Positions 41,830-57,000 of a DNA stretch of 64,000 bases are shown piece by piece. Numbering within the stretch: position 1 is the stretch's first letter; every line of letters begins with the position of its first letter. The stretch is from a virus, in IMG/VR virus record IMGVR_UViG_3300028388_004772, positions 1-64,000 of that record, one strand, 5' to 3'. The notes beneath the pieces are model-generated. The model made no database searches. It had not been told where the DNA came from and was given only the letters and a program-made list of their open reading frames with translations. The position numbers and the translations under genes are program-made.

Positions 41830-42390
41830 TTACATTTGAAGAAAAATGTCAACAGGAATAGCTAATCTTAATTGAGATGTATATTGTTTGACATAGTGAT
41901 ATACATAACCAGGAAAAATTAAAACATCTCCCGTCTGAGGTTTATGTTCTATGGAAGCAAAATCATTTATGAATGGCGGCATAAATCCTCTGTTAGCGTT
42001 GAAGCGAGGGTCTTGCATAACAATTTCTCCGCCTGAGTCTTGTTCTTCGGCCATTATATAAAATACAGAAACAAATTGAGATCCACTATGGTTATGAGTC
42101 GCCATATTGTATCCATTTGTAGTTCCTGTTAACCATGCTTTGAGCGAAAAGTCAATAGTGTCTAAATCAAAGTTATAAACGTCTTTGAAAAAGTCACTAT
42201 ACTTTTCAGTAGCTACTTCTTTCAATAATGGTGCAGTTTCTATTAGATTAGACGTCCAATCACCCTGAGGTTTAGTGACATCTTCAGTTGATAATACAGA
42301 AGTTGCAATTTGGTCACAAACTTGGTAATCGATAGATGTCTTATAGATTGGTGTAGACCAGGCTTTATTTAAGCCCGCATTCAGCTTCAT
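41830..42390 (-). CDS. Putative Fe(II)/2OG oxygenase (phage-type, HxH)
   Basis: AW.......THNH....VSVFY, GGEI...DPR, P..GD.LIFP.Y..H.V, R..I double-stranded beta-helix pattern. Confidence 0.8.
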   Translation of the reverse strand: MKLNAGLNKAWSTPIYKTSIDYQVCDQIATSVLSTEDVTKPQGDWTSNLIETAPLLKEVATEKYSDFFKDVYNFDLDTIDFSLKAWLTGTTNGYNMATHNHSGSQFVSVFYIMAEEQDSGGEIVMQDPRFNANRGFMPPFINDFASIEHKPQTGDVLIFPGYVYHYVKQYTSQLRLAIPVDIFLQM

Positions 42391-42757
42391 AGTATTTCCT
42401 TACATCTGGTACCATTCCTTTTGTTGGTATAATTGGTACTTGATCTAAAATAGCATCATATGTTTCAGGATCTAAGTCATAAGGTACGAAGTATGGATCG
42501 TTTCCGTAAAGAAGTTCGGGATCATTCAGTAACTGATAAAAGTCTTCTCCATAATCTTCACAAATCCATGTAGCATAACAAATAGCAACAAAATATGATT
42601 TAGCAGGGTAAATCCATTCTGAGACATTTTCATAAAAATGTTTTACTGCATCCCCTACAATATCTTGTGAGTTAATTATATTAACTTTATTAAGATCATC
42701 ATTATAGTCTTTGTTTAGACGATGATATATCTCTTGTTTGATTTTCCATAACTTCAT
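42365..42757 (-). CDS. Hypothetical protein of the radical-SAM cluster
   Basis: 130 aa from MKLWK; overlaps both neighbours. Confidence 0.7.
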   Translation of the reverse strand: MKLWKIKQEIYHRLNKDYNDDLNKVNIINSQDIVGDAVKHFYENVSEWIYPAKSYFVAICYATWICEDYGEDFYQLLNDPELLYGNDPYFVPYDLDPETYDAILDQVPIIPTKGMVPDVRKYYEAECGLK

Positions 42758-43655
42758 ACCATTCAATTAGCCCCTTGTAACCATTACAGCTATTTTCCAA
42801 ATCACGAACATATCTATAATGTTCTGTTAAACATCTTCCTTTGTATCGACAGCTCTGACATATAGGACTAAGGTTGTTTTTTTCCTTTTGTGTCCATTCA
42901 ATATATTCATCAAAACTTTTTAGCTCTAAAAAATATTCCTTATCATTAATATCAAACTCAAGAACACCAAAGTTTCCATCCGGCGTGATATAAACATGGT
43001 CATCTGAAAACGCGTTATATTGACCATCAATACTTTCAATAATTTTAGATTCATTGACAAAGTTAAACTTTTTGTCAACTCCAGATTGAATCCATTTTTT
43101 AACAAATTCTTCAAAGTCTCTGTGTGTTATATTATAGGAGTTGGCTTGATTAATACTATATGGTTTGATTTCAACTGATTCAATTGACCCGCATACATTT
43201 AACTGGCTAATCATGCTGTCAACATTCATCTGCAATACAGCAGGGGATGCTAAGACTAATACAGCAATAGGTTTAGGTGAGAACATCATGTTTTGAAAAA
43301 CAAGCTCGTTTTTTTCTCGTGCATTAAAGTCATAAGATACTGAAAGATATACATCTTCATCAAAAAAATAATTATGAATCATAGACATATTCGTAATAAT
43401 ATTAATCTCACCATCATAATACTTTCTAATTACATTTTTATAATTGTAAAACACTTCTGGCTTAAGTAGACCTATCTCCCCACCATACATATCCAAATAT
43501 TTTATTTCTGGTACTTCTGATAACCTTTGATCTAATTTTTCAAAAGATAAGCGCCGGCGATCAGACAGCTGTTCTTCAGTCAAGTAACAAAAAGAACATC
43601 TAAAGTTACAATGATAACTAGGATTTAGTGATAATGTGACTGCTTTCGTCGACAT
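42702..43655 (-). CDS. Radical SAM enzyme with Cys-rich C-terminal (SPASM/twitch-like) domain
   Basis: CNFRCSFC, YGGE, C-terminal CQSCRYKGRC...SC. Confidence 0.9.
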   Translation of the reverse strand: MSTKAVTLSLNPSYHCNFRCSFCYLTEEQLSDRRRLSFEKLDQRLSEVPEIKYLDMYGGEIGLLKPEVFYNYKNVIRKYYDGEINIITNMSMIHNYFFDEDVYLSVSYDFNAREKNELVFQNMMFSPKPIAVLVLASPAVLQMNVDSMISQLNVCGSIESVEIKPYSINQANSYNITHRDFEEFVKKWIQSGVDKKFNFVNESKIIESIDGQYNAFSDDHVYITPDGNFGVLEFDINDKEYFLELKSFDEYIEWTQKEKNNLSPICQSCRYKGRCLTEHYRYVRDLENSCNGYKGLIEWYEVMENQTRDISSSKQRL

Positions 43656-44667
43656 ATGGGGTCACCTCAAGGTTCAGTCCATTGGCTTCTATAATAGATG
43701 GGGCAATAGATTTCATAAGTTTACAATGGTCTTCTACCATATTATGTAGCTTCTGATCCTTAATTGTCTTCTTACAACCATTACAGATCTGAAACATAGG
43801 ACAGGAATAACATGCTTGCTTCATTGAATTAAGATACAAGTCATCTCGCAGAGGATGAAACATCTCCCCATTCATCTCTTGTTCAAAGTTAATGGCTTTC
43901 TCTCTATCATCTCCAAACGCCCCGCATGAATAGTAATCACCTTCTGGCTGTAGGGTTCGAATACCTGAATCACAATCCCTATTCTGAGGACAGACGGTCT
44001 GTTCGCCTCTGAGTCTCCTGACCATCTGTTGAGTATTATGTTCCCAATCTGTCAGACCAGCCTTCCAGATCTCAACATACTTTTCATAAATCTTTGCAAG
44101 CATATAAGGTTCTGATTGAACACCAGAGGCCATTGCATAGTTGACCTTACACACCACACCCATCTTTTTAGCGAGCTCGACAGTTTTTAACACGGTGTCT
44201 TCATTGTCCTCTGTAATCACTGCGATGAATGAAGGACGATAACCAACCTTGTCCAACATCATATCAGAAACAGCCCAGAAGTCATCTTCTGTGAATACGG
44301 TATAGTCACCTTTGAGTCTTCCGTCTCCATATTGAAAAGATGTAGCGATTCCGACACGTGGATGTCTGAATAAATCTAACCACTTGCTCGGTTTCTTATA
44401 GAATGGCCACAGATTAGTAGTCAGTGAAATAGAGGTATCATAGCCTCTTTCATCTAAAAAATCAATGATTTTCCAATAATAACTTGGATCGATCATTAGC
44501 GGATCGCCACCATTGACGATGATGGTGTTTGTATTTGGATACCGATCAAGAAATCTGTACACGTGCTCTAGATCAAGCTCAGCTGCTTTATCTTCAACGA
44601 TATCTGTCGAGGAACAGAATGTGCATTTAAAATTACACAGCTCAGTTGGTTTAATAATTAAGTCCAT
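43618..44667 (-). CDS. Radical SAM/SPASM enzyme
   Basis: IIKPTELCNFKCTFC, NGGDPL, CPQNRDC...SC, CYSCPMFQICNGC...HC. Confidence 0.92.
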   Translation of the reverse strand: MDLIIKPTELCNFKCTFCSSTDIVEDKAAELDLEHVYRFLDRYPNTNTIIVNGGDPLMIDPSYYWKIIDFLDERGYDTSISLTTNLWPFYKKPSKWLDLFRHPRVGIATSFQYGDGRLKGDYTVFTEDDFWAVSDMMLDKVGYRPSFIAVITEDNEDTVLKTVELAKKMGVVCKVNYAMASGVQSEPYMLAKIYEKYVEIWKAGLTDWEHNTQQMVRRLRGEQTVCPQNRDCDSGIRTLQPEGDYYSCGAFGDDREKAINFEQEMNGEMFHPLRDDLYLNSMKQACYSCPMFQICNGCKKTIKDQKLHNMVEDHCKLMKSIAPSIIEANGLNLEVTPYVDESSHIITKS

Positions 44668-45118
44668 CTACCTTATACGCCAAATTAATAGCAACCCTTA
44701 CTTGATCTGTAGGATTTACTCTGTGTTTAACATGCGATGCTTGGCTAAGCATAACTAGTAAATGTTTTTTAGGCTGAACACACCCGACGACGCTATCATT
44801 ACACTGTATCATCAACTCTCCACCGTGGTCAACAGTAGTGAGATAATACAGAAAAAACGTGTTGTATCCCTCAACTAGATCATTATGCCATTCCATAGTC
44901 GAATGTTCTGATCCTACAAACATAGAGTATGTGTAGTCAGAATAACCTGGGAAATACGGAGCAATATAAGAGCTACCGACATAGCTACTCATATCGTTAA
45001 GATTAACATCAATCATACTAAATGAATTAGACTGCGGCATGTCGTATTGAGGTATCATTTTCTCAATACTTCTGTCTTCAAATGTCACAAATCCATGAGT
45101 AAAAAAGTTATCAATCAT
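44651..45118 (-). CDS. Fe(II)/2OG oxygenase
   Basis: WHND, LYYL, GGEL, HRV, distal R. Confidence 0.8.
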   Translation of the reverse strand: MIDNFFTHGFVTFEDRSIEKMIPQYDMPQSNSFSMIDVNLNDMSSYVGSSYIAPYFPGYSDYTYSMFVGSEHSTMEWHNDLVEGYNTFFLYYLTTVDHGGELMIQCNDSVVGCVQPKKHLLVMLSQASHVKHRVNPTDQVRVAINLAYKVDGLNY

Positions 45119-45133
45119 ATAGTAAAGTAATTT

Positions 45134-45664
45134 TTATCTACCTAAACCAGGAATAAAAAATTCAAAAGTTAACATACGGCGTTCTCCACCTTTATGAGTT
45201 GCTTTATGTTTAAACGCGTGTGTTTGATTTACCCATACGAATTGGTTTGGTTTGTGCGAAATACTAAATTCTTCAAAACCATTAGAAAAATCGATTGTAT
45301 TTCCGTATGGGTCTCCATCGTCTAAATAAATTAAAAAATTAGTATTCAAAGGTCTTTTGACTTCTTCGTAATCGCTATGCCACAGTGAAGACTTGTAGTC
45401 AACGCCAGACCACATACCATTAGTTATAAATTCAAATTCATTCGACACTTGCTTAATGTATTTTTCTGCAACGACTTCTGTAATTTTATCTAATAGTTCT
45501 TGAGATTCTGGAGCATAGACCATTTCTTCTTTCAAGTCTCGCTCTTTGTCTTCGCTTACACAAGTTGGAAACTCGTGTCCTTCGAATAAAGATACAACAT
45601 CCATACAAAATTGATCAGAATAGTATCCTTTTACAAAAAAATCTGTTAATTCTTGCTTTTCCAT
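45134..45664 (-). CDS. Fe(II)/2OG oxygenase
   Basis: WHSD, FLIYLD, HKA, RR.L.FEF. Confidence 0.75.
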   Translation of the reverse strand: MEKQELTDFFVKGYYSDQFCMDVVSLFEGHEFPTCVSEDKERDLKEEMVYAPESQELLDKITEVVAEKYIKQVSNEFEFITNGMWSGVDYKSSLWHSDYEEVKRPLNTNFLIYLDDGDPYGNTIDFSNGFEEFSISHKPNQFVWVNQTHAFKHKATHKGGERRMLTFEFFIPGLGR

Positions 45665-45705: not shown

Positions 45706-46194
45706 TTAAGACCAACCAACACTCAATGTCTTTCTTGGTACTGATCCAAAGTATGGACATATCTTGTGTAAAAGAGACGCGTCAAAAGTCACAATTGTTC
45801 CTTTCTCAGGTTGAATTCTAATTTTGTTATTGGGAAAATTAAATAAGTTGTGATTAAAATATATGTCAAGTTCTCCACCAACCCATTTACTAGTATCATA
45901 GTCGAGAAATAATAAAGTTATCCACTCAGCCTCGTTTTTGTCGTCATGTAACTCCCACAATATACAATCTCGCGAATTTTTATCATAAGTTGGAACACTA
46001 ATAGTATGCGCAAGCACTGGATCCATTAATTTATGAGTTAACCCATATACTTCAGCTTGCAACAATTTTAAAATATAGTGATCACTGAGCTTTTGTAAAA
46101 CGTTATGCCCTTCTCCTTCTTTGAAAGGAAGACATAGTATATCGTCGAGCATCTGCTGAGGTATTGCTTTATGTGATATATTATATTTTTGCAT
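45706..46194 (-). CDS. Fe(II)/2OG oxygenase (prolyl-hydroxylase-like)
   Basis: LHDD, LLFL, W.GGEL, P.KG..V.FD..L.H.I.P, RK.L..GW. Confidence 0.82.
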   Translation of the reverse strand: MQKYNISHKAIPQQMLDDILCLPFKEGEGHNVLQKLSDHYILKLLQAEVYGLTHKLMDPVLAHTISVPTYDKNSRDCILWELHDDKNEAEWITLLFLDYDTSKWVGGELDIYFNHNLFNFPNNKIRIQPEKGTIVTFDASLLHKICPYFGSVPRKTLSVGWS

Positions 46195-47749
46195 CGATAT
46201 AATTCTCTAGAATGTCTCGGTTTTCATTCAATATCTTTTGTCCTCTATATTGAATATTGTCACCATTAGGTAAAGTATCCATACTAAATCGATTCTGAGA
46301 TAATAGCGAAGATTTAAGAATAGTGCATAGTGCTATAAATTCTGGAAGTTGATTAAGCCCATTCCATAATGCTTTAATATATGGCGATATTTTTTTAAAA
46401 GACATATACTTGGCCATCCATGTTTTGTCTAATCCTTTACATATCTTATTCATTAGAGTCATTTCAATATAATCGTCTATTGAATACGAATAACATTCGA
46501 CTATTGTTTCATATTCAAGTTTAAGATCTTTATAGATCGTATTATCTAAATCGTCTTGGTGGCCAAAGTTAGGATCCATCTCGTTTGTAACAACGATGGT
46601 CTTGATACCATACTTGTTTTTATACTCTGGGTCTGCCGCTTCTGTAGCTGGCAATATCATATACGGATATCTATTATCGTCCCAATAATTTAGATGATGA
46701 TAAAGATCATATTCTTCGTAAAAATCGCTAATAGTTGAGCCAGGCATTCCCATAATTAACTCAAGATCTATGTAGAAATCTGATGGATCTGTCGCTTCAT
46801 TTTGTATCTCCCGAGCTCTATCTAAGACGTAATATATCTGATCTTTTTTAATATCAATTCGTTTAGCCACTTCTCTGGCTTCGTCTGATATAGACTGAAT
46901 ACTAATCGATATTTGTCTTTTAGACATACCCAATTGAACCATACGTCTTAGTATGTCCAACTTTCTCTCAATATCGAGTGTTTTTAATATTGACAATGAA
47001 TCTCCAACACTCAAATTATATTTTGCAAACAAAGATATTACTTCAAAATCTCTTTCTTTAAACATCCCAGTGTTTGCGTCAGTAAGATCTACGTACATTA
47101 ATTCAAACTGACTTAAGTACCGAAGCTCATCTTCAAATATATTTAAAGGCTTTTTAATTACCTTTATTCCTGTACCACCACCCCATTCGCAATAAGTGCA
47201 CTTAAAAGGGCATCCTCTAGTAGTCTCACCTGAAATTATGATCCGTTCAAAGATGTCAAGGTTTTCTTTAAAATAATAAAAGACTTTTCGAAAATAAGAG
47301 TCGCATCTTTTATATACATTTGTATAGCCGTAAACAAAATTAGTTTTTTTTGGAAGCGAAGGATCAATATAGCGATCAATATAGTTTGTTATAAACAACT
47401 CCCCATATGTTAATGGGTCTGCAGCTACAGTATAGTTTTTAACTATGTCAGAATTGAGATGAGGTCCACCGACTACTGTGATCACATTAGGATCAAGTTG
47501 AGATCTAATATTTTCATTAATTGAATAGTTCCACACATAGTTGCAGAACAACACAATATCGCAGTCTCTTAGATTATCAAGAATCATGTCATAAGTCATA
47601 TGATCCCATTGGTATACTGGTTCGACCCATTCAACTCTATCGTTAAATGCACCATGATCTTCATAGTATGTTTTAAACAACATCCAACTATAATTGAACT
47701 CACTTCGAGAAGCATTACTTGCTGGATTTATGTAGCCGATTTTTAGCAT
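46181..47749 (-). CDS. Cobalamin-binding radical SAM enzyme (class B methyltransferase-like)
   Basis: N-terminal B12-binding-like region (YVWN, VVGGPH), ETTRGCPFKCTYCEWG, DAN.G, SIQS, ELIMGMPG.T. Confidence 0.88.
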   Translation of the reverse strand: MLKIGYINPASNASRSEFNYSWMLFKTYYEDHGAFNDRVEWVEPVYQWDHMTYDMILDNLRDCDIVLFCNYVWNYSINENIRSQLDPNVITVVGGPHLNSDIVKNYTVAADPLTYGELFITNYIDRYIDPSLPKKTNFVYGYTNVYKRCDSYFRKVFYYFKENLDIFERIIISGETTRGCPFKCTYCEWGGGTGIKVIKKPLNIFEDELRYLSQFELMYVDLTDANTGMFKERDFEVISLFAKYNLSVGDSLSILKTLDIERKLDILRRMVQLGMSKRQISISIQSISDEAREVAKRIDIKKDQIYYVLDRAREIQNEATDPSDFYIDLELIMGMPGSTISDFYEEYDLYHHLNYWDDNRYPYMILPATEAADPEYKNKYGIKTIVVTNEMDPNFGHQDDLDNTIYKDLKLEYETIVECYSYSIDDYIEMTLMNKICKGLDKTWMAKYMSFKKISPYIKALWNGLNQLPEFIALCTILKSSLLSQNRFSMDTLPNGDNIQYRGQKILNENRDILENYIDAKI

Positions 47750-48261
47750 TTTATTCTAAACACTCTACCGTTCTCAACAACCTTAGGCCCATCATATACC
47801 GAAGACGCGTAGGGGGATTCCATAATATTTGTATTTAATTCTTTAGCTCTTTCTCGCATTGTTTCTACAGTTGGAATCAAATCACCTTTTTTACAAAATG
47901 TGTCAATGAGTAGTTTATACATTACTTTTTGCTCTTTGCGGCTAAAGTAATGTATAAAATTGCCATTGATTTGAATGTTGTTAACTATATTGCCTTCAAA
48001 ACTAATCCACATAATCTCAAGTTCGTCAAGATGTGTTTTTGGCAAACCATTAAATTTTTCAGTTTTTTCTTCAATCGCATTTGTAATATTCTTGTCGCTG
48101 AAAAAACGATCATGAATTGGGAGAGAACAGATGTAAATTTTATTAATTGGTGTTTTAAAATATATGCATGGCGGCACGCCCTGTGGTATATAATCAAAAC
48201 ACACTTCTGTGACTGTGTACGGAAACTTTATTCCGTTTTCAATATCTGTTTGTGAAAACAT
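47743..48261 (-). CDS. Hypothetical protein of the cluster
   Basis: 172-aa ORF coupled to the B12 radical SAM gene. Confidence 0.65.
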   Translation of the reverse strand: MFSQTDIENGIKFPYTVTEVCFDYIPQGVPPCIYFKTPINKIYICSLPIHDRFFSDKNITNAIEEKTEKFNGLPKTHLDELEIMWISFEGNIVNNIQINGNFIHYFSRKEQKVMYKLLIDTFCKKGDLIPTVETMRERAKELNTNIMESPYASSVYDGPKVVENGRVFRIKC

Positions 48262-48262
48262 A

Positions 48263-49279
48263 TTATGCTCGAGCTATAATGCCACTTGCTGCATCAATGT
48301 ATCTGAATGTTTCTTTATAGACGCACTCTTCCATTTCTTGTCTATATCTATAATCGTGTTGCATAAAGCAGCCTAGTGTGCACCGATTAAAATATTCACA
48401 CGTAAGACATCCATACTTTTCCATGAAACTTTCTTCGATGGGTGAGTTATCCATTGGTTGTATGTCATGATCATACATCACTTTGTCTTCAGGCGATTGT
48501 ACAAGGTTACCACACATACACATTGTATTATCTTCTAATATAAGCTTACTGCTTCTGCAACTAATGTAGTTCGTTTGCCTTTCAATCCACTCAGCAATAG
48601 GGCTAAGTTTAGGGTAGTTGTTTATAAAGTATTTGAATACAGCATATAGCTCATGATCAGTTGGTGCTTGGTGGTGTGCTGTTTTGTCTGGCATGTAGTA
48701 GTCAGCGTACAGATAGAATCCATCTCTATAGAATTGATCTAAGTTTTTATCTCCTTTAAGAAATGCTTTGATGTTCTGTTTAGTCAACAAAAGACCAATA
48801 CCATCCAAATGCTCTTGAAAGTAGTATAAGTTTTTCTTGAACAATGCTAAGTCTTTTTTATTGAATCTACCAGAGGGATCGTAGCTAGTAAAAAGAGTAG
48901 AAGGAATTGCTTTTAATAGAGTTTCTATTAGGTCAATTTTAGTTGTGACGAGATTTGTTACCCAATTGACAGACGTATTAATGTTATATTTCTCACCAAG
49001 GTCAAAAATCCCTTGAGCAAGTTTTATATAATCTTGGTTGAGCTTTTCATTATAGATTGAGTCAGCGAATATTTCTCCACCCATAATATTAAAAACTACA
49101 GATGATTTTTTCTCTTCTAGAAGAAACTGCTCAATTGGCTCAAGCTTTTCAAGAACCGTATCGATCCCTGTCAGATTACCATGATCTTGCCAACAAAACG
49201 AGCAAGAGAGATTACAAAACTCAAAAAGATGAATGGTGTACTCTTGTTGGTGATCTCTCTTTGCATCTAATAAAATCAT
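48263..49279 (-). CDS. Radical SAM enzyme with SPASM-like domain
   Basis: CNLSCSFC, MGGE, SC...CMC, CLTCEYFNRCTLGC...EC. Confidence 0.9.
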   Translation of the reverse strand: MILLDAKRDHQQEYTIHLFEFCNLSCSFCWQDHGNLTGIDTVLEKLEPIEQFLLEEKKSSVVFNIMGGEIFADSIYNEKLNQDYIKLAQGIFDLGEKYNINTSVNWVTNLVTTKIDLIETLLKAIPSTLFTSYDPSGRFNKKDLALFKKNLYYFQEHLDGIGLLLTKQNIKAFLKGDKNLDQFYRDGFYLYADYYMPDKTAHHQAPTDHELYAVFKYFINNYPKLSPIAEWIERQTNYISCRSSKLILEDNTMCMCGNLVQSPEDKVMYDHDIQPMDNSPIEESFMEKYGCLTCEYFNRCTLGCFMQHDYRYRQEMEECVYKETFRYIDAASGIIARA

Positions 49280-50337
49280 CTCAAACTATAATTTTTCAGC
49301 TTCTCAGGATTTGTTCTATATAAAGTTCTGCAGTACGAAATAAAGATTGTATTGATCTTACCCATTCTACCTATATCGGTAGAACTAACATGAGTAGCAT
49401 CGGTCTTACATTCTAAAAACTCTTTGATCACCTTGTTCAGTTGAGTGTCGGTAAGCTCACCTTTCATGATTGAATTCAAATATGGAATCTCATCGTCAAG
49501 TGTTTTAAACATCGCGATTGAAGATTGTGCTGATCCAGTGTTTTCTAATTTTGAACAAACATCGATTGCTGCGTTTACTATTTTCTTCGCTTGAGTGTAG
49601 GTAAGCCCTTCTAGTGTAAACTTGCCGGCCGAGCCCGCTATGTAAGGACTCTTATTAACGTCCTCAAAGCTTTTATACGTGGATGATTCAAATATTTCTT
49701 TAAAGAAATTTAAAGACGAATAATTAGAAACATCTAATAATTCGCCTGTGTTGCCAAGAATCTTCTGTAGCTCATCATCTAGAATGTTTAACTCCATGTG
49801 TTGCATCAAACACATCAATCCGTCATCAATTTCTCTACGCATGAACGTAGCAAATGTTTTCTTAAGATTAGATTTGTATCGTGTGTCACCATTTACTTGA
49901 CTAGCAACCATAAATTCTAGCGAAGGAGTATATTGGTAACTTGACAGGTCCAGCTCCGGAGCTTCATCCCAATAATTAATAAGAAAATCTTTCATGCCTT
50001 CACATGATTCATTATACAATTCTCGGTGCTTTACGATACACTCAGCATATATCACCCAATCGTCAGCACTCATATTCGTAGCTGATTTATACCACGTGGC
50101 AGCGATCTTCGCAAATGATTCTATATCAGCATGAATAGCTCTCTTATCATTAGCCAACAGCATATGTAAAAATAAATTTTCTGCATCTTCAAAATCAAAT
50201 GATGGAGCAATGAATTGCTCCTCAGGTTTCAAATCTTCTTTAATAGTATCTGACCAATCAAAATATGCACCGCCAATCTTAGTGTTGTACAACACATCAG
50301 GTGTGTCTAAATAAATTCTATTAAACAGGTGTAGCAT
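49276..50337 (-). CDS. Hypothetical protein of the cluster, 353 aa
   Basis: Start MLHLFNRIY at 50337 overlaps the upstream TGA. Confidence 0.7.
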   Translation of the reverse strand: MLHLFNRIYLDTPDVLYNTKIGGAYFDWSDTIKEDLKPEEQFIAPSFDFEDAENLFLHMLLANDKRAIHADIESFAKIAATWYKSATNMSADDWVIYAECIVKHRELYNESCEGMKDFLINYWDEAPELDLSSYQYTPSLEFMVASQVNGDTRYKSNLKKTFATFMRREIDDGLMCLMQHMELNILDDELQKILGNTGELLDVSNYSSLNFFKEIFESSTYKSFEDVNKSPYIAGSAGKFTLEGLTYTQAKKIVNAAIDVCSKLENTGSAQSSIAMFKTLDDEIPYLNSIMKGELTDTQLNKVIKEFLECKTDATHVSSTDIGRMGKINTIFISYCRTLYRTNPEKLKNYSLR

Positions 50338-50969
50338 CAGTTTGCCTCTTGTACTTCTTGAATATTGCCGGATGCAATTGCCCATGTAAGGAGAAACATT
50401 GGGTTATTCTCATTAGCCCAGTAAGAAAATAAATTATTTCCTTTAAACATGTAATCGTTAAAGTAACTTGAAAAATATGTAAGATTATTTGGATTTACTT
50501 TTTTGAACAACAAATAAAAATCTTTATTCTTAACCAAACTTATGAAGTTTATTCCTGTTAAATCTTTTGTATCATCTTCTGGAAATTGTTTAACCCAATT
50601 TTGCATTTCTTCAGAATTAACTGAATATATGTTAAAAAGAGTTAATGAATCGATTTTTCTTTCCCAAGATAACAATTCTTCTTTATTATCTACATCTTCA
50701 CCCATCTTTAATTTGCCTAACATAGCTATGACGACAGTTTCAAGAGACGGAATGTTTACTAACACTTGAGTTTTTAAATAATCCCCAACAAACTCTTGAT
50801 CAAAGTTAATTACATCACATGGAAGATCTAAATTACCTAAGTACGTTAATAATCTATCACCCCGTAACTCAGAATTTTGATAATCAATAATAAAGTATGT
50901 TTCTTTATCTTCAAAATACTTTTTCAAATCATCAATTGCAATTGGTGCAGTTGTATCAATAACATTCAT
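50337..50969 (-). CDS. Hypothetical protein of the cluster, 210 aa
   Basis: Coupled (TAATG) directly after the CHxS-repeat protein. Confidence 0.75.
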   Translation of the reverse strand: MNVIDTTAPIAIDDLKKYFEDKETYFIIDYQNSELRGDRLLTYLGNLDLPCDVINFDQEFVGDYLKTQVLVNIPSLETVVIAMLGKLKMGEDVDNKEELLSWERKIDSLTLFNIYSVNSEEMQNWVKQFPEDDTKDLTGINFISLVKNKDFYLLFKKVNPNNLTYFSSYFNDYMFKGNNLFSYWANENNPMFLLTWAIASGNIQEVQEAN

Positions 50970-51568
50970 TATCTTCTACCTCTTGAAGAGTGACACGAGG
51001 AGTGGCAGCTAGCGTGACAAACATTTCGTGTTAAAGTAATAGTGTTATCTCTTTCGCTGTTATATGCAGCTCTAAAATTACTAAAAAGAGTTTCCAAATT
51101 ATCATCGTCAATTATCTCGCCTGCGGAAACGCTAGCATTATCTGGATCGGTGATAGTTTGTAAATAATCATCTGATAAGTATGCAACTTGGGTTTGGTCA
51201 AACACAATACCAAACGTACCAATAGGTCCTTTGTCCGTATTCGATGTGCCAGATACTCCAGTAACGTTTAATCTAGCTCTAACTTTACGTATGGATGTAT
51301 ACCGATTTGTTTCTGTAACAAGTGCATTGTAAATTGCATTAGCATCTATCAATTCACTTCCGTCAGCTTTAATATCATCCCCATCAATGCTAATTGATTT
51401 TCCGTCTGAATTGCCACCCATAAATGCATCAGTAAGCACAGTAACACCTGAATACGTAGGATTTGTATTTGTAGCCCATACAATCCCACCATTTGCATGA
51501 TCCACTACAAATTCTTTGAATCGATTCACTATATTCTGGGCTGTGACTGGATTAGTTAATGTAGCCAT
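50969..51568 (-). CDS. Putative modification substrate/precursor with a C-terminal (CHxS)3-RGRR tail
   Basis: 199 aa ending VCHASCHSSCHSSRGRR; all three Cys lie in the tail; adjacent to a radical SAM/SPASM gene. Confidence 0.75.
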   Translation of the reverse strand: MATLTNPVTAQNIVNRFKEFVVDHANGGIVWATNTNPTYSGVTVLTDAFMGGNSDGKSISIDGDDIKADGSELIDANAIYNALVTETNRYTSIRKVRARLNVTGVSGTSNTDKGPIGTFGIVFDQTQVAYLSDDYLQTITDPDNASVSAGEIIDDDNLETLFSNFRAAYNSERDNTITLTRNVCHASCHSSCHSSRGRR

Positions 51569-52571
51569 TTATTTCTTCATCCATCTTTATCATTAATAAC
51601 TTTGGAGCCGGACATACATCATCTTCCCATTCAAGCTGATGGCAGTCTCCTTTACAGTATTTATACATGTTACAGGTGTAACACCTTGGATCTCTTGTTA
51701 GCTCTTGGGCAATGATTTCACACCGTTTTGGCTTATTAAGCACATTTAACCCATCGTCAATATGTCCATACACTTCTTCAGGAGCAGCGTTTGGGCAACC
51801 TGATATAGACCCATCGGCATTAATTGTAAATAATTTCTGTTCACAATCACGACAAAAAGTACCAGCTGAGTTAAAATTGTCTTCGAACTTTGTATATATG
51901 TTTTCTAAAAAGTCATTTCTAAACCAAGCTCTTGCATCATAGCGTTTAGTTTGTTCATACATTTTTAAAAACCAGCGCTGGAGCTCCAGATTAGTAGGAA
52001 AAATTATTGGATTTTTTCTTGCTGATCCGTTTAAGGTTAATCTTTCGAGTGCTAATTCCTGCACTCCTAGTTTTTTTACAAATTTAAGAAGATCTATTGG
52101 TTCCATATCTATAACTGATCTACTAAGAGAAACAAACAATTTAATTGTATAACCGCGGTCAAGCAGCAATTTGATATTGTGTTCCCACAGATCGATTTGT
52201 TTTTTATTCTCAAATCGAATGTCTGAATCCCACGACGTTCCAATACGTTTATTTAACGCATTATCCATAAAGTCTAATTTATCATCAGTAAGCTTAAAAA
52301 CAAGATTTGTTGTAGCTCCGTAGCTAAATCCATTAGCTTTTGTGCGATGATAAAAATCCCACATGCTTTCTATAGAGGCGAGAAATGGTTCACCTCCATG
52401 AAACTCAAAATGGCCTGTCCTTCCACTTGTTAACAAATTGCACCAATCTGCAGTTTTTTTAGAATCAAAAAATATCTTTCTACCATTCTTTCCAGAAGTA
52501 AAGCAGTGACTACAATTAAGATTACACGTCTCAGTAGTTTTAATGTAAAACATCAGGTCATTTTTAATCAT
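51552..52571 (-). CDS. Radical SAM/SPASM enzyme
   Basis: YIKTTETCNLNCSHC, FHGGEP, CRDC, GCPN, CYTCNMYKYCKGDC, CP. Confidence 0.93.
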   Translation of the reverse strand: MIKNDLMFYIKTTETCNLNCSHCFTSGKNGRKIFFDSKKTADWCNLLTSGRTGHFEFHGGEPFLASIESMWDFYHRTKANGFSYGATTNLVFKLTDDKLDFMDNALNKRIGTSWDSDIRFENKKQIDLWEHNIKLLLDRGYTIKLFVSLSRSVIDMEPIDLLKFVKKLGVQELALERLTLNGSARKNPIIFPTNLELQRWFLKMYEQTKRYDARAWFRNDFLENIYTKFEDNFNSAGTFCRDCEQKLFTINADGSISGCPNAAPEEVYGHIDDGLNVLNKPKRCEIIAQELTRDPRCYTCNMYKYCKGDCHQLEWEDDVCPAPKLLMIKMDEEINGYIN

Positions 52572-52948
52572 TCGTCACCGATCGACAACATTACAGAATC
52601 ATACTTATTGATTGCTTCATGAGGTGTATTGGCTGGTATAAGTAGAGTGTCTGTAATCTCTAACTCTTTACCATTTATTATCATTGTCTTCGTCCCCGAT
52701 AGCACTTTTAATTGTACATCATATGGGTCAATATGACAACGAAAACTTACAGCATTTTTTGGGGAAATGTATAGGTGGACAGTCTTGGGACAGTACTCTG
52801 TATAGTACGACTCTAATCCCTCAACCTTTATTGTCTTTTTATTTTCAGCAATATAATAACCAACCTGATCTAGTGTTATCTCATGATCAAGTTGGTTCTC
52901 ATCAATTATGTAAGCCTTAGTACCATACTTTAAAATTTCAGATAACAT
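52568..52948 (-). CDS. Cupin/JmjC-like oxygenase
   Basis: HLYISP....SF..HIDPYDV......G.K, L.IPA.TPH.A; resembles the minimal core of JmjC/ROX-type hydroxylases. Confidence 0.75.
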   Translation of the reverse strand: MLSEILKYGTKAYIIDENQLDHEITLDQVGYYIAENKKTIKVEGLESYYTEYCPKTVHLYISPKNAVSFRCHIDPYDVQLKVLSGTKTMIINGKELEITDTLLIPANTPHEAINKYDSVMLSIGDE

Positions 52949-53829
52949 TCAACTATTTTTACTTCCTCAAAATTATTGCTTTGTAAAGCAATGCCAACCA
53001 TTGGACCAGTACCTGTTACTGATGCGAGACCAGGAGAACAAGCGTATACCACATCTCCTTTCGCTACAGTCCCCTTGATTCTGACAGGTACCCTTCCGAC
53101 AAGGGCTACTGATTGACCCTCAGAAGAAGAATTCATTATATATGCGGGATTTGTTGAAATGACCCCAGTAACCTCTTTACCAGAAGTCCATGGCTCCATT
53201 TCATCATCTTTGTTGGTACCTATTGTCATTACAGTCCCTGGGGGCTGAATGGTCTCCGTTGTATATTTCTCGGCTACGTCAGCATATTGTGCTTGAGTAG
53301 CAGTAGCGGTAATTATATTGGCACTAAAATTGCTCGAATCATCACGAAATACAATTGTATTTGCAGTATTGTCCGCAGTAGCATTTGATGTAACAGTAAA
53401 TGTTCCTCCGTTCGAGCTAACGCTACCAGAAATACCATTACCTGATGTTGCACCTACAGCTACGTAGTTGCCAATTGTAAACTCACCTGTAATTGAATCA
53501 TAATTTAGCCCATTACCCGAGGAAAATAAGCTTCTAGTACTTTGCGCATCTACAGAGCCTGTAAGAGTAAATATACCAGAACCGCTATTGTAAGATAAAG
53601 AAACGCCAGTAGCTTGGTCATCCACGCTAATCGATTGTCTTGATATAGTAGTAAGTTCACCTGAATCATCAAAGGCGCTGACTATATTTCTTACTGTGTT
53701 AATAGCATCAACAACATTACTATCACCTGTCACTAAATTATCGACATTTCCAACATCATTAGAAATAGTATTTGTCTTAGTGACAAATACCGACATAGTG
53801 TCTGACAGGTTAACATTAGTTATAGCCAT
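52930..53829 (-). CDS. Fibre/spike protein with C-terminal intramolecular chaperone (autocleaving) domain
   Basis: AQYADVAEKY, PGTV..IG, GVISTNPAY.MN, VAL.GRVPV...G.V.KGD. Confidence 0.8.
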   Translation of the reverse strand: MAITNVNLSDTMSVFVTKTNTISNDVGNVDNLVTGDSNVVDAINTVRNIVSAFDDSGELTTISRQSISVDDQATGVSLSYNSGSGIFTLTGSVDAQSTRSLFSSGNGLNYDSITGEFTIGNYVAVGATSGNGISGSVSSNGGTFTVTSNATADNTANTIVFRDDSSNFSANIITATATQAQYADVAEKYTTETIQPPGTVMTIGTNKDDEMEPWTSGKEVTGVISTNPAYIMNSSSEGQSVALVGRVPVRIKGTVAKGDVVYACSPGLASVTGTGPMVGIALQSNNFEEVKIVECYLKF

Positions 53830-53835
53830 TTTAGA

Positions 53836-54069
53836 TTACCTATTTTTCTCGACTAATTGTACCAATAAATCTTTGATTTCTTTTATCTCGTCTTTAAGAT
53901 CTTCGACCTCATTGGCGAGCGACAGCTGCTGTTCTTTTTGCTGCTTCATTAATTGTTTTCTCTTTCGGGCCGCTTCAATTTCAGCCTTGTTTGTATTGAT
54001 GACAACATTTGTTTCTGTGTCTCTTACAAAACCCGAAAGATTTTCCACTTCCTTATACTGCAAGTGCAA
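53836..54069 (-). CDS. Small coiled-coil protein
   Basis: VE....FVRD..T..VINTN, EV..LK.EI.EIK.LL; typical gene after VrlC-like proteins. Confidence 0.75.
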   Translation of the reverse strand: MHLQYKEVENLSGFVRDTETNVVINTNKAEIEAARKRKQLMKQQKEQQLSLANEVEDLKDEIKEIKDLLVQLVEKNR

Positions 54070-57000
54070 TGGCCCTCAAGTCCTTCAATACTGGGATGTA
54101 TGAAGTACTTGTGGATTCCATTACAATCTTAATCTGGAAGGATGTGAATGCTGGCAATTGGCCACCTTCACCACCAATCAAGTACTCATACTCTCTGAAC
54201 ACCAATACCTCATCAGAAGGCACAGTTGTAGTAGCGCTCGCGAGCTGCCAACTAGTATCCCTAATTGTCTCTGCGTCAGTAGATGTTCTGTAGTAAACTT
54301 TAAAGTTACCAGCAGATGGTCTGTACGCTGCAAAGAACAACTTAATACCAACAGCCTCTTCTGCCAACGTTGCAACAGTTGTAATGTGCTTCGAAGCTGA
54401 TGAGCCATTGTATGGATCGGTTTCATCTACAATCGAAATTGGTACATTGAAACCAGATGTGTTGGACGAATCTTGCTTATCAATAGAGTTCTCAATAAAT
54501 GTCATCGAAGCTCTTTGAAGATCAAGAATTGGAGATACTTTAGTATCGCTTGTTGACAAAGTCAACTTAATCGTAGCAGCATCTGCAACCTGGTTCTTCG
54601 AGTTAGGAATTAGCTTAGGAGCCTGTGTTCCATTCACCTCATTAATAATGATTGGGGTGAAAGAAGATGCCACACTATAAGCTGAGTTGGTTGCCTCGTT
54701 ACGATCAGTACCCCAACTTGCTCCACTTGTCAACTTAATACTACCAGAAATACCAGTATTATTAGGTGTTAGGGTTTGTACCGTTGTGAAGTACTCATTG
54801 AACATGAACTGCTGAGTAGACTTAACATTTGTTCCACCCGTGCGAATTGATCCTGTTGCTGCTGAATCAGCTGCAAAAGTATATCCAGTCCAGTCAGTAT
54901 TAATGATTGTTCTATCACCAAGCATCGACGCACCTTTAATTCCAGCATATGTCGATCCTGAATCTAAGCCATACAAAGCCACTGTATCATTCTTAACAAA
55001 TCCATGGCCTTCATGGAACACACGAATAGTCGTAGAACCTGAATCAGTTAGAATTGGATCACTACCGAGCAAATACAATGGTGGTTGTGCATTGGTTAGG
55101 TAAGCATCACCTGAGCTGCTAAATTCAGCACGGTTAATTCTAAACATCAAATCTCTATTCTGATCTGGTGTCCAGGTTGTACCGTTTTGTGATCTATACA
55201 ATGAACCAAGAGTTGGTTGCTTCGATACTCTTGCATCCGTAGATCCAAGAACAAAATCATATGTCTTGGCAACATAGACTGTGTAGTCTGTAGTCTCTGC
55301 TGCAACCACTATTGCATACTCTTGACCAGGGGCCAGGTAAATTGGCTCGTCAAATGTAAATGTTGTTGGAGCTGCTCTTACACTTTCAAGGTCTTCTAAA
55401 TCAGCAGGAATTGATACTTCAGTTGGTGATAGATATTTGACAGCACCTGGTAACGGATATGCTAAAGGTGTGCCGTTCTCTACTCCACGAATTTGAACCT
55501 GTACAGGTTGACCTCCAGTTGGAGCCTTTGTTCTAAAGAATACATCAACACTTGTTACAAAGATACCAGATGGGTTCTCTGTTTGTGATACAAAGAATGA
55601 TTGGGCAACTGGGTCCCAGAAACAGAAAATCGATTTCTTCTTAACAACAATTGTCTGAACATCAATCTCTCGTGTTACTTTAAGTGTTCTTTCTCTTACT
55701 TCCAATACACCAGTTGATGTAAAGATGTCTTGACACAATGATGTTGCGTTGTCATCATTATCAGCTGTGATATCAAGAAGTTTGAGAATCTTTGATCCAG
55801 TTCTGAATTTGATTGCATTAGTAGAAGGAATGAAGAATGATCCTTCAATTTTACCCTCAGCATCTGAGATCAAACGACTCTTACCCTCAGGATGCTCAGT
55901 TGCTCTTTGATAGATATTACCATAATCTTCAGTAGTAGAACTGTATCGTACAAATGATTCTTCTCGAACCCAATCAGCAACACTAACACCATTAAAGAAG
56001 GCAAAATGTTCTGTGTTCGGTTTTAATCCTTGAGCCTTAAAGTATACTTTCTTAGATCTCATGTAAGGAATAAGGAATGTTTCTATTACTCTGTTGCCAA
56101 CCTGCTCAATAATAATATCATCTCTGACTACAGCTTCGTTTGATGCAATTGATACGCTTGGTTGATCATCAATCAATGCATTGACGGCAGCTGCTGTGGC
56201 AGAGCTTGCAGCTGCAAGACTAGCTGCAGTGAGATAATTACCTGCCATTAGCTGACCGAGTGCAGTTGTGGAAAGAGAGAATCCAGTACTTGCAGCTCCA
56301 ACACCAGTAGCAGCTCCTCCTGCAGTTCCTCCACCAAGTAGTCCAAAACCACCCGTTTTTGCTGCTATTACCAAGGCAACTGCTATACCAAACCAGCCAC
56401 CAAAGGTTCTTTGAACAACCGTTCGAGTACCCACATTTCTCTTCTTGACACCACCATCAATTAGAACGTCCGGTAAGAATGCTTGCTCAATCCAGTCGTC
56501 CGATGCTGGGGAAAGCTGAAGAGTACCAGTGTTGATAATAACTTCAAATGGGTTAACATTAATTGCTTCGTTACACAAATCTTGATATGAAAACTGAGTT
56601 TCTGTGTACGGAAGAGTAACAAGATCACCTGTCTTATTAGTTGTCTGACTGACGCCATCTGAATCGAAGAACAGCCGCACATTACCATAGTAAATCGCTG
56701 GCGTAATAACTTTGGCCGATGGATCCAAAGCAGCTCTATAGCTAACATTGTCCACATCAGAAAAAACAAAATCCTTGAAGTTATCAGCAAAGAATCCTGA
56801 CTTAGTTCTTTGCAATCCGTTTGAATCTAGTACAGATAATGTCGATGTATTCAATTCAAGCAAACTCAGAGAGGTAACATCTGCTAACTTGTTTATTCTT
56901 TTTTCAAGTGAACCGATGTCTTTCATCGTATATCTTCTATTATTAATGAAAGATAGGTTTACATCAGAATCACTCAAAGTGTATGGAGGAAGAGTTATAT

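Follow-up and report, generated by a model that had tools for sequence, protein, structure and literature searches.

A conserved C-terminal Cys-His-x-Ser tail on a phage virion-type protein as a probable substrate of co-encoded radical SAM enzymes

The window analysed here, a 64,000-nucleotide stretch covering positions 1 to 64,000 of the IMG/VR virus record IMGVR_UViG_3300028388_004772, encodes on its minus strand a 199-amino-acid protein (CHS199, positions 50969..51568) whose C-terminal tail of Cys-His-x-Ser units is a candidate substrate of radical S-adenosylmethionine (rSAM) enzymes encoded around it. The last 16 residues (C184 to R199) read CHAS-CHSS-CHSS-RGRR and are followed by a TAA stop, and the codons in the reverse complement of positions 50969-51019 are TGT CAC GCT AGC / TGC CAC TCC TCG / TGT CAC TCT TCA / AGA GGT AGA AGA / TAA; the coordinates, codons and description of the tail in the original prediction, which had singled it out as a candidate core peptide, proved correct when the sequence was re-read. 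All three cysteines of CHS199 (184, 188 and 192) and three of its four histidines (24, 185, 189 and 193) lie in the tail, which contains three H-x-S units (185-187, 189-191 and 193-195). The body, residues 1 to 182, is acidic, has no Cys and is rich in Thr (12%), Asn (10%), Asp (10%) and Gly (8%), a composition in agreement with that prediction. The tail motif occurs once in the 141-kb genome, in which a reversed control pattern occurs 0 times, and is far beyond chance. The sole PHROG family match of CHS199 is phrog_35144, and a Pfam search found no domains in it.

The tail gene lies between the genes of a putative radical SAM/SPASM enzyme (rSAM_C, 51552..52571, minus strand) and of a 210-amino-acid acidic partner (h210, 50337..50969, minus strand; phrog_20767), its tightest neighbour. 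It starts 17 nt inside the 3' end of the rSAM_C gene and its stop overlaps the ATG of h210 by 1 nt (TAATG), an arrangement by which the three genes are predicted to be translationally coupled. rSAM_C matched PF04055 with 29.5 bits, at the cut-off, and the SPASM model TIGR04085 with 31.7 bits against a cut-off of 27. Its CX3CX2C motif (C16/C20/C23) and 7-Cys SPASM motif (C243-x10-G-x4-C259 ... C297-x2-C-x5-C-x3-C310 ... C320) are invariant in 21 orthologues, and on these motifs, the second of which is complete and typical of maturases acting on peptides or proteins, the enzyme is assigned to the radical SAM/SPASM superfamily. Three related enzymes are encoded further downstream on the same strand, namely rSAM_B (48263..49279; radical SAM, phrog_1802 at 6.6e-44), rSAM_A (43618..44667; radical SAM/SPASM, PF04055 at 1.2e-9 and phrog_1802 at 4e-61), the best conserved of the set, and p317 (42702..43655), a fourth radical SAM protein of phrog_1802. 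The whole module is co-oriented and tightly packed, in the order fibre, cupin, rSAM_C, CHS199, h210, h369, rSAM_B, h172, B12-binding radical SAM (B12-rSAM), three 2-oxoglutarate (2OG)-Fe(II) oxygenase-like genes, rSAM_A, p317, p133 and a further 2OG-Fe(II) oxygenase.

A word-indexed search returned at least 273 homologues of CHS199; among the best 120 (45-100% identity) the three Cys-His pairs are kept in 117 and the RR end in 120. A profile search of 1.84 billion representatives at 50% identity gave 652 family members, 290 of them at E≤1e-10, and the (CHxx)3-RxRR-COOH end is kept in 137 of the 149 best-scoring representatives. In a 74-member alignment C184, H185, C188, H189, C192, R196, R198 and R199 are invariant, the bodies are 47-80% identical to that of CHS199 with loops as hypervariable as those of receptor-binding proteins, and invariant columns are concentrated in the tail, which by these comparisons is the best-conserved part of the family. 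Across 65 distinct nucleotide versions both synonymous codons occur, at about 60/40, for every tail Cys and His, the Ser of the first repeat is invariant despite switches between the AGY and TCN codon families, the arginines at tail positions 13, 15 and 16 are invariant and the stop follows directly after RR in 65/65; the invariance of Cys and His in this set was imposed by the search pattern, that of Ser and Arg was not. Such synonymous turnover bears out the earlier claim that the repeat is held at the protein level and is not a product of DNA slippage. The third position of the H-x-S/N triad is Ser or Asn in nearly all of the 65 tails, and in 70 carriers retrieved with a degenerate DNA pattern the distance from the third Cys-His pair to the stop is without exception six residues. 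A few tail variants have a Gly inserted ahead of the Arg block.

Thirty IMG/VR loci carrying the body family of CHS199 share a recurring core (rSAM_C - tail gene - h210 ... rSAM_B ... rSAM_A), and in 29/30 the tail gene has rSAM_C as its immediate upstream and h210 as its immediate downstream neighbour; in the exception (L026) about 2 kb separate rSAM_C from the tail gene. rSAM_A is 61-87% identical across related loci and also occurs in the phages Atu_ph07 and RSL2 and in Bdellovibrionota, orthologues of rSAM_B are present in all contexts, and p317 was found in every related locus reaching that far. The contexts comprise T4-like marine myoviruses, phiKZ-like and Rak2-like jumbo phages and chromosomal islands of Bdellovibrionota, and h210 adjoins the tail gene in T4-like and jumbo-phage loci, in loci of a second body family described below and in Bdellovibrionota. 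The carrier phages belong to very different lineages (T4-like, Rak2-like, phiKZ-like), and the module therefore travels as a unit. A motif search near C-termini with a record of the neighbours, as originally proposed, found the tail strictly C-terminal and beside rSAM genes.

Neither a tblastn search with CHS199 nor a megablast search with positions 48000-54000 gave a match among 50,697 phage records; the bodies having diverged too far, cultured isolates could be reached only with the rSAM_C protein as query. In the 15 cultured-phage records with an rSAM_C homologue the tail-bearing gene was immediately downstream in 15/15. The module is carried by Agrobacterium phage Atu_ph07 (tail protein gp170), Sinorhizobium phage Phosso and Pseudomonas phage pPa_SNUABM_DT01, by the Ralstonia phages RSL2, RSF1, FLC4 and RsoM3USA and by the Burkholderia phages FLC6, FLC8 and SURPRISE13. 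The link to rSAM enzymes drawn in the original prediction thus extends from the orthologues of 51552-52571 in viral and cultured-phage loci to the same enzyme set in Bdellovibrionota, and the homologues that keep the enzymes also keep the tail, the loss of which had been named beforehand as an argument against the idea.

The gp170 protein of Atu_ph07 has 296 amino acids, the same tail and the same gene neighbours as CHS199. The virion proteome of this phage, obtained by electrospray ionization tandem mass spectrometry (PMC6102473, Table S5), lists gp170 (31.89 kDa) with 8 unique peptides and 35% coverage, as well as gp176, a chaperone-type fibre, and gp177, and lists none of gp164-169, 171 and 172. 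Gene comparison identified these unlisted proteins as the rSAM enzymes, the cupin and the h210 homologue. In Atu_ph07 the tail protein is packaged in the virion and the neighbouring enzymes are not, which upholds, for the orthologue only, the earlier assignment of CHS199 as a structural protein.

Taken with the conserved gene order, these observations suggest that the CHS tail is a substrate of the co-encoded rSAM enzymes and stays on the virion protein, a reading to which we assign a probability of roughly 0.6. CHS199 would be a virion protein, fibre- or baseplate-associated, and its tail (three Cys-His-x-Ser/Asn units and R-G/S-R-R-COOH) would be the dedicated substrate of rSAM_C, rSAM_B, rSAM_A and p317, with optional tailoring by the B12-rSAM, the cupin and the 2OG oxygenases. 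The folded body, probably held by h210, would present the tail in the cytoplasm of the infected cell, where the rSAM enzymes would abstract hydrogen atoms and install covalent cross-links within a tail or between tails. The likeliest links would be a His-to-Ser/Asn C-beta cyclophane, as with HtkB/HaaB, and/or Cys thioethers, as in sactipeptides, ranthipeptides and QhpC. The modified protein would then be built into the particle, with the enzymes left out; a protein that works with a host-recognition fibre would thus have an end that is rigid, cationic and resistant to proteases. The modification of the tail, the roles of the individual enzymes, the type of cross-link and a part in attachment or assembly are all inferred from comparison.

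The position of gp170 on the gel bears on what such cross-links might join. In the Atu_ph07 study bands 1-9 all contained gp170, the largest amount being in band 1, the top gel band, which contained proteins of 87-127 kDa, the other 29-34-kDa proteins peaking in bands 7-8 (PMC6102473). In this one table, in which many proteins smear, gp170 boiled in SDS seems to migrate at a much larger size than its monomer, which fits an SDS- and heat-stable, possibly covalent, assembly. A bolder version of the proposal is that radical C-C, C-N or C-S bonds made by the rSAM enzymes weld the tails to one another, or to a partner in the fibre or baseplate, and so form a covalently stapled, SDS- and heat-stable oligomeric tip, the module being an envelope-attack part shared by large phages and predatory Bdellovibrionota; we put this forward tentatively, as possible and on balance doubtful.

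Several points weigh against modification of the tail. The case for it is comparative throughout, and the four SPASM-type enzymes score far below every NCBIfam cut-off for characterised maturases (HxsB/C, DynA, DarE, PapB, QhpD, anSME, YhhB, AmcB and GrrM), so that their chemistry is not transferable by homology. The number of rSAM genes (4-5) mismatches the number of repeats (3-4), and the true substrates, or further ones, could be h369, h172, p133 and the products of the adjoining fibre genes. For gp170, the high position on the gel derives from a single published table with many proteins smeared across bands, and non-covalent SDS-resistant fibre trimers would look alike on a gel. Cys-His pairs, finally, are classical metal ligands, and metal sites are frequent at phage tips.

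In an unmodified metal site the Cys-His pairs, three per chain and multiplied by oligomerisation, would coordinate Zn, Fe or Cu and so fix the protein in the fibre or baseplate, with the rSAM enzymes acting on another target such as the fibre or a small molecule. The invariant residues are indeed Cys and His, a metal-locked oligomer would also explain an SDS-stable species of high molecular weight, and there is precedent in the tips of T4 gp37 and of P2 gpV/phi92 gp138, which hold Fe via HxH, and in PAAR tips, which hold Zn via His and Cys. Such a site leaves unexplained, however, why, in unrelated phage lineages and in bacteria alike, the rSAM set accompanies every tail found, why Ser/Asn, not a usual metal ligand, is near-invariant, and why R-x-R-R-COOH is invariant. 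It also leaves unexplained the variants that lose Cys and keep all three H-x-S/N triads: two profile-search matches (P0162 and P0191) end in ...CHSN-H[A/S]NT-CHxS-[K/R]RSRR, with the middle Cys lost, which hints that the His triad, not Cys, is the indispensable unit. We regard the unmodified site as unlikely, and metal binding and tail modification are not mutually exclusive.

The packaging of gp170 bears equally on whether the tail is released. If the body were an oversized leader, the modified 16-17-residue tail would be cleaved off as a small cationic ribosomally made, post-translationally modified peptide (RiPP) serving as an antimicrobial, signal or cofactor in infection or predation. The layout, with an N-terminal recognition part, a C-terminal core and several maturases, is RiPP-like, and long leaders of the Nif11/NHLP type exist. 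A classical RiPP precursor nevertheless differs from CHS199, whose body is a predicted folded 182-amino-acid domain with an orthologue that is a virion component, and Pfam, PHROG and NCBIfam searches recognised no protease and no exporter or transporter family in the conserved gene set. The body loops are hypervariable, one homologue is fused to a glycine-rich phage domain, and the [N/D]-[V/I]-C junction does not correspond to any known site of leader cleavage; of the explanations weighed here, release of the tail is the least probable.

Fibre genes suggest another target. In many phage loci the module comes after a fibre with an intramolecular-chaperone (IMC) type end, and one Bdellovibrionota island has such a fibre beside it, so that the rSAM enzymes might chiefly modify this fibre or other proteins of the cluster, and the CHS protein, with three Cys and three His that could ligate an Fe-S cluster, might be an accessory subunit (an Fe-S or metal donor, or an enzyme scaffold) carried into particles. 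Yet the fibre genes differ wholly between contexts while the tail is constant, most of the 8-kb Bdellovibrionota stretches searched gave no IMC-type fibre gene (the one island examined more widely has one beside it), and an accessory subunit would not be expected in virions from which all the enzymes are absent. We consider this role very unlikely, and return to the tail as the probable substrate in comparing the module with known systems.

HXS (HxsA-D), a bacterial antiphage system (PMC13128918), would come nearest as a parallel: there, two rSAM enzymes and a small partner mature an entire protein that carries His-x-Ser units. In both systems the substrate is a complete protein bearing basic His-x-Ser units, accompanied by at least two rSAM/SPASM-type enzymes and a small non-enzymatic partner, and the rSAM-dependent +8 Da change of HxsA was mapped to an S-H-R-S-S unit (PMC13128918) that resembles S-C-H-S-S-R of the CHS tail. 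By contrast, the window enzymes reached 27.4 bits against HxsB (TIGR03978, cut-off 370) and 28.5 bits against HxsC (TIGR03977, cut-off 267.9), with matches covering the N-terminal rSAM core only, and NCBIfam gave no match to HxsD (TIGR03976) at E≤1 for h210, h369, h172 or p133. HxsA has a signal peptide and a peptidoglycan-binding domain (PMC13128918), neither of which CHS199 has, and the CHS tail is distinguished by an invariant Cys in each unit and by its strictly C-terminal position with RGRR. HXS, moreover, is bacterial and directed against phages, whereas the CHS module is encoded by phages for their own particle.

Triceptide maturases also offer a likeness: HtkB links His C2 to Lys C-beta, and HtkB and HaaB join His C2 to the C-beta two positions on (PMC11499958). 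The CHS tail shares with triceptide systems the repeated aromatic-x-X triads (here H-x-S/N), kept even where Cys is lost, and the rSAM/SPASM enzymes encoded alongside. It differs in that matches to YhhB (NF041707), AmcB (NF041718) and GrrM/OscB (TIGR04261) reached 12-21 bits against cut-offs of 310-445, in that the substrate is a folded structural protein of 180-300 amino acids with a Cys before every His, and in having four or five paralogous rSAM enzymes in place of one. In CXXX-repeat, ranthipeptide and sactipeptide systems, as here, a short C-terminal array with Cys at every fourth residue meets SPASM maturases, and the spacing holds in the three repeats of the CHS tail and in the four of loci L112 and L117; the matches, however, were 19.8 bits to TIGR04115 (cut-off 350) and 37.9 bits to PapB (cut-off 340), and those systems use other acceptor residues, act on short exported peptides and have no His in the motif. 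The earlier view that the tail combines two rSAM target patterns accordingly stands as a resemblance and fails as membership, the HxsB/HxsC, CXXX-repeat and triceptide scores all lying below their cut-offs.

Two enzymes that act on larger proteins were compared as well. In the QhpD/QhpC system of quinohemoprotein amine dehydrogenase an rSAM/SPASM enzyme installs Cys thioether cross-links in a subunit kept in a larger assembly; the cross-links of QhpC are to Asp/Glu, without a His-Ser pattern, and QhpC is a periplasmic enzyme subunit. The best window match to QhpD (TIGR03906) was 38.5 bits against a cut-off of 453, and the CHS tail, unlike QhpC, is on a virion protein. The sulfatase-maturating enzyme anSME (PDB 4K36-4K39) is a SPASM enzyme acting on a protein Cys at C-x-[P/A]-x-R, to which the last CHS repeat (C-H-x-S-R) has some likeness, but the matches to TIGR03942 were 36.6 and 44.8 bits against a cut-off of 349, the first two repeats have no Arg, and position +2 of the last repeat in 65 tails was Ser in 29, Gly in 22, Thr in 6, Asn in 5, Ala in 2, Val in 1 and Pro in 0. 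Sulfatase-type formylglycine formation on the last repeat was rejected as the leading idea, position +2 being rarely Ala and never Pro and the anSME scores being far below the cut-off. By sequence, anSME and CteB, whose substrates are peptides or proteins containing Cys, are nonetheless the nearest solved relatives of rSAM_C, if weakly.

Structure prediction with AlphaFold2 gave CHS199 as an alpha/beta domain (mean predicted local distance difference test score, pLDDT, 86.8; predicted template modelling score 0.81) with the tail as a short low-confidence helix. The monomer model is in keeping with the folded carrier domain, in place of a short leader, that had been proposed for it. Fold searches found nothing in the PDB at E≤0.001 with Foldseek, a best Z of 5.1 in a wide VIA-align search and TM-scores of 0.41 or less in the ESM Atlas; the BFVD matches were uncharacterised phage proteins only, one of them from Atu_ph07. 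The predicted complex of rSAM_C with CHS199 had an ipSAE of 0.02, a value that tells neither for nor against an interaction. The model of h210 (pLDDT 92.4) gave weak Foldseek and VIA-align matches to its first 60 residues only and no PDB fold match; NCBIfam and the protein atlas provided no lead, and a RiPP recognition element (PqqD-like) was not demonstrated in h210.

Carriers of the tail form two body families, that of CHS199 (about 190 amino acids, with 140-amino-acid short forms) and one of 126-140 amino acids encoded as tandem pairs. Homology between the two bodies was rejected, a tail-free comparison having given an hhalign probability of 3.6%; because it is also borne by this second family, the tail is a portable module. 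Loci of the second family have the tail genes directly after a giant fibre with an IMC-type end, followed by five CX3CX2C enzymes and an h210-like gene. In L052:152-13553, and also in L031, L061, L067, L069 and L085, two tandem tail proteins of 126-140 amino acids follow a fibre of 1300-2800 amino acids ending in ...SDSENGEVEVKV, and precede the five CX3CX2C enzymes and partners of 367 and 278 amino acids, without cupin or 2OG genes. Within the first family, L054 (2703-3629, minus strand) and L080 (9492-10418, plus strand) encode, between rSAM_C and a 140-amino-acid tail-bearing short form, a 308-amino-acid tail-less protein weakly similar to CHS199 (phmmer 1.8e-7), which may be a split or duplicated body. 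A metagenomic protein of 453 amino acids (P0152) has an N-terminal glycine-rich PF21722 domain (7e-11), a phage surface-type domain, fused to a complete CHS body and tail. Two Bacteriovoracia metagenome-assembled genomes (MAGs; L112:864-1433 and L117:156-764) have four C-H-x-S repeats followed by GSRGRR.

A pattern scan of one genome per species across 185,579 prokaryote species gave 32 matches, 20 of them in Bdellovibrionota MAGs (Bdellovibrio, Pseudobdellovibrio, Bacteriovoracaceae and Halobacteriovoraceae) and one a false positive (Microbacterium, L095), most of the other readable ones being phage-like contigs that had been binned with other taxa. In a sample of 401 Bdellovibrionota genomes the pattern was present in 13, and the reversed control gave 0. 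Most of the Bdellovibrionota loci have the tail protein, h210 and several of rSAM_A/B/C and p317 in rearranged order, often also with oxygenases and the B12 enzyme. One island, in a Halobacteriovoraceae genome (G001), lies on a 1.29-Mb contig between genes for acyl-CoA dehydrogenase, serine dehydratase, an Mrp/NUBPL ATPase, SLT and a class A penicillin-binding protein and adjoins a Peptidase_S74 fibre-like gene; these housekeeping flanks, examined for this one island, led us to reject a prophage or a mis-binned phage contig. The Mrp/NUBPL-type Fe-S cluster carrier ATPase (L132:5647-6801, minus strand) lies about 2 kb from this island; it might be a source of clusters for the rSAM enzymes, or its position may be coincidental. 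On a 2.84-Mb Bacteriovoracaceae contig (L133:9866-16933, minus strand) a 2355-amino-acid RCC1-repeat/Big_2 surface-type protein adjoins h210 and the tail gene, in the position that fibre genes have in phages. Inspection found no signal peptide in the bacterial or phage tail proteins, whose N-terminus is a shared conserved amphipathic helix.

A literature search for the motif string and for links between rSAM enzymes and fibres in phages and Bdellovibrio found no relevant description. Papers on pelagimyophages and on RSL2-like, FLC, S13 and Aeromonas giant phages mention the radical SAM, cupin and 2OG genes only as annotations left unexplained (PMC7029224, PMC5468394, PMC8066314, PMC11898562 and PMC12390700), and the many rSAM genes in phage structural clusters were called "highly unusual" (PMC12390700). 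Proteins matured by rSAM enzymes are already known; the context of a virion protein is not previously described in the literature searched. A modified tail would mean that phages apply RiPP-type radical chemistry to proteins of their own particle, within a host-recognition module. That would provide a function for the rSAM, cupin and 2OG genes in the "host recognition clusters" of pelagimyophages, cyanophage-like phages and jumbo phages, a new substrate motif for SPASM enzymes and a link between phage adsorption machinery and islands of predatory bacteria. Welded tails would make the CHS protein the first in a virus particle to be cross-linked by radical SAM enzymes. The presence of the module in cultured phages of Agrobacterium, Ralstonia, Burkholderia, Sinorhizobium and Pseudomonas makes the proposal directly testable.

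The remaining genes of the module, all on the minus strand, are less constant. Upstream of rSAM_C, a 126-amino-acid JmjC-like cupin (52568..52948; PF08007 JmjC_2, 1e-6) is a candidate protein hydroxylase, usual beside rSAM_C in phage loci and present in Atu_ph07, RSL2 and DT01. We take PF08007 to be the family of ribosomal-protein Arg and His hydroxylases, by analogy with which His or Arg of the tail are plausible targets of the cupin. Downstream of h210 lie h369 (49276..50385; 369 amino acids), variably conserved and with weak homologues at a like position in some loci, and h172 (47743..48261; 172 amino acids), for neither of which Pfam, PHROG and NCBIfam searches gave a family match. They are followed by the B12-rSAM (46181..47749; partial match to the KedN5-type model NF033712, 5e-26), found in about half of the related loci, and by three small 2OG-Fe(II) oxygenase-like genes (45706-46194, 45134-45664 and 44651-45118; PF13640 in two of three). 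The oxygenases are variable, as is h369, and with such variable presence the B12-rSAM and the small oxygenase genes look like optional tailoring genes. By synteny, the island is closed by a 133-amino-acid open reading frame (p133, 42365-42766) and a 186-amino-acid 2OG-Fe(II) oxygenase (41830-42390; PF13759, 2.4e-11; phrog_81).

On the other side of the module, a 299-amino-acid fibre protein (52930..53829, minus strand) has a C-terminal domain of the self-cleaving IMC type (PF11962 Peptidase_G2 and tail-fibre PHROGs). Its homologue in Atu_ph07, the 66-kDa gp176, peaks in band 4 with proteins of 52-57 kDa (PMC6102473, Table S5), which would fit loss of the C-terminal chaperone domain by self-cleavage. 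Further upstream, a 1749-amino-acid protein with DUF4815 (1.4e-58) at 54053-59302 on the minus strand aligns with large proteins preceding the module in related loci; it fits the VrlC-type baseplate protein that lies upstream of the "host recognition cluster" in pelagimyophages (PMC7029224).

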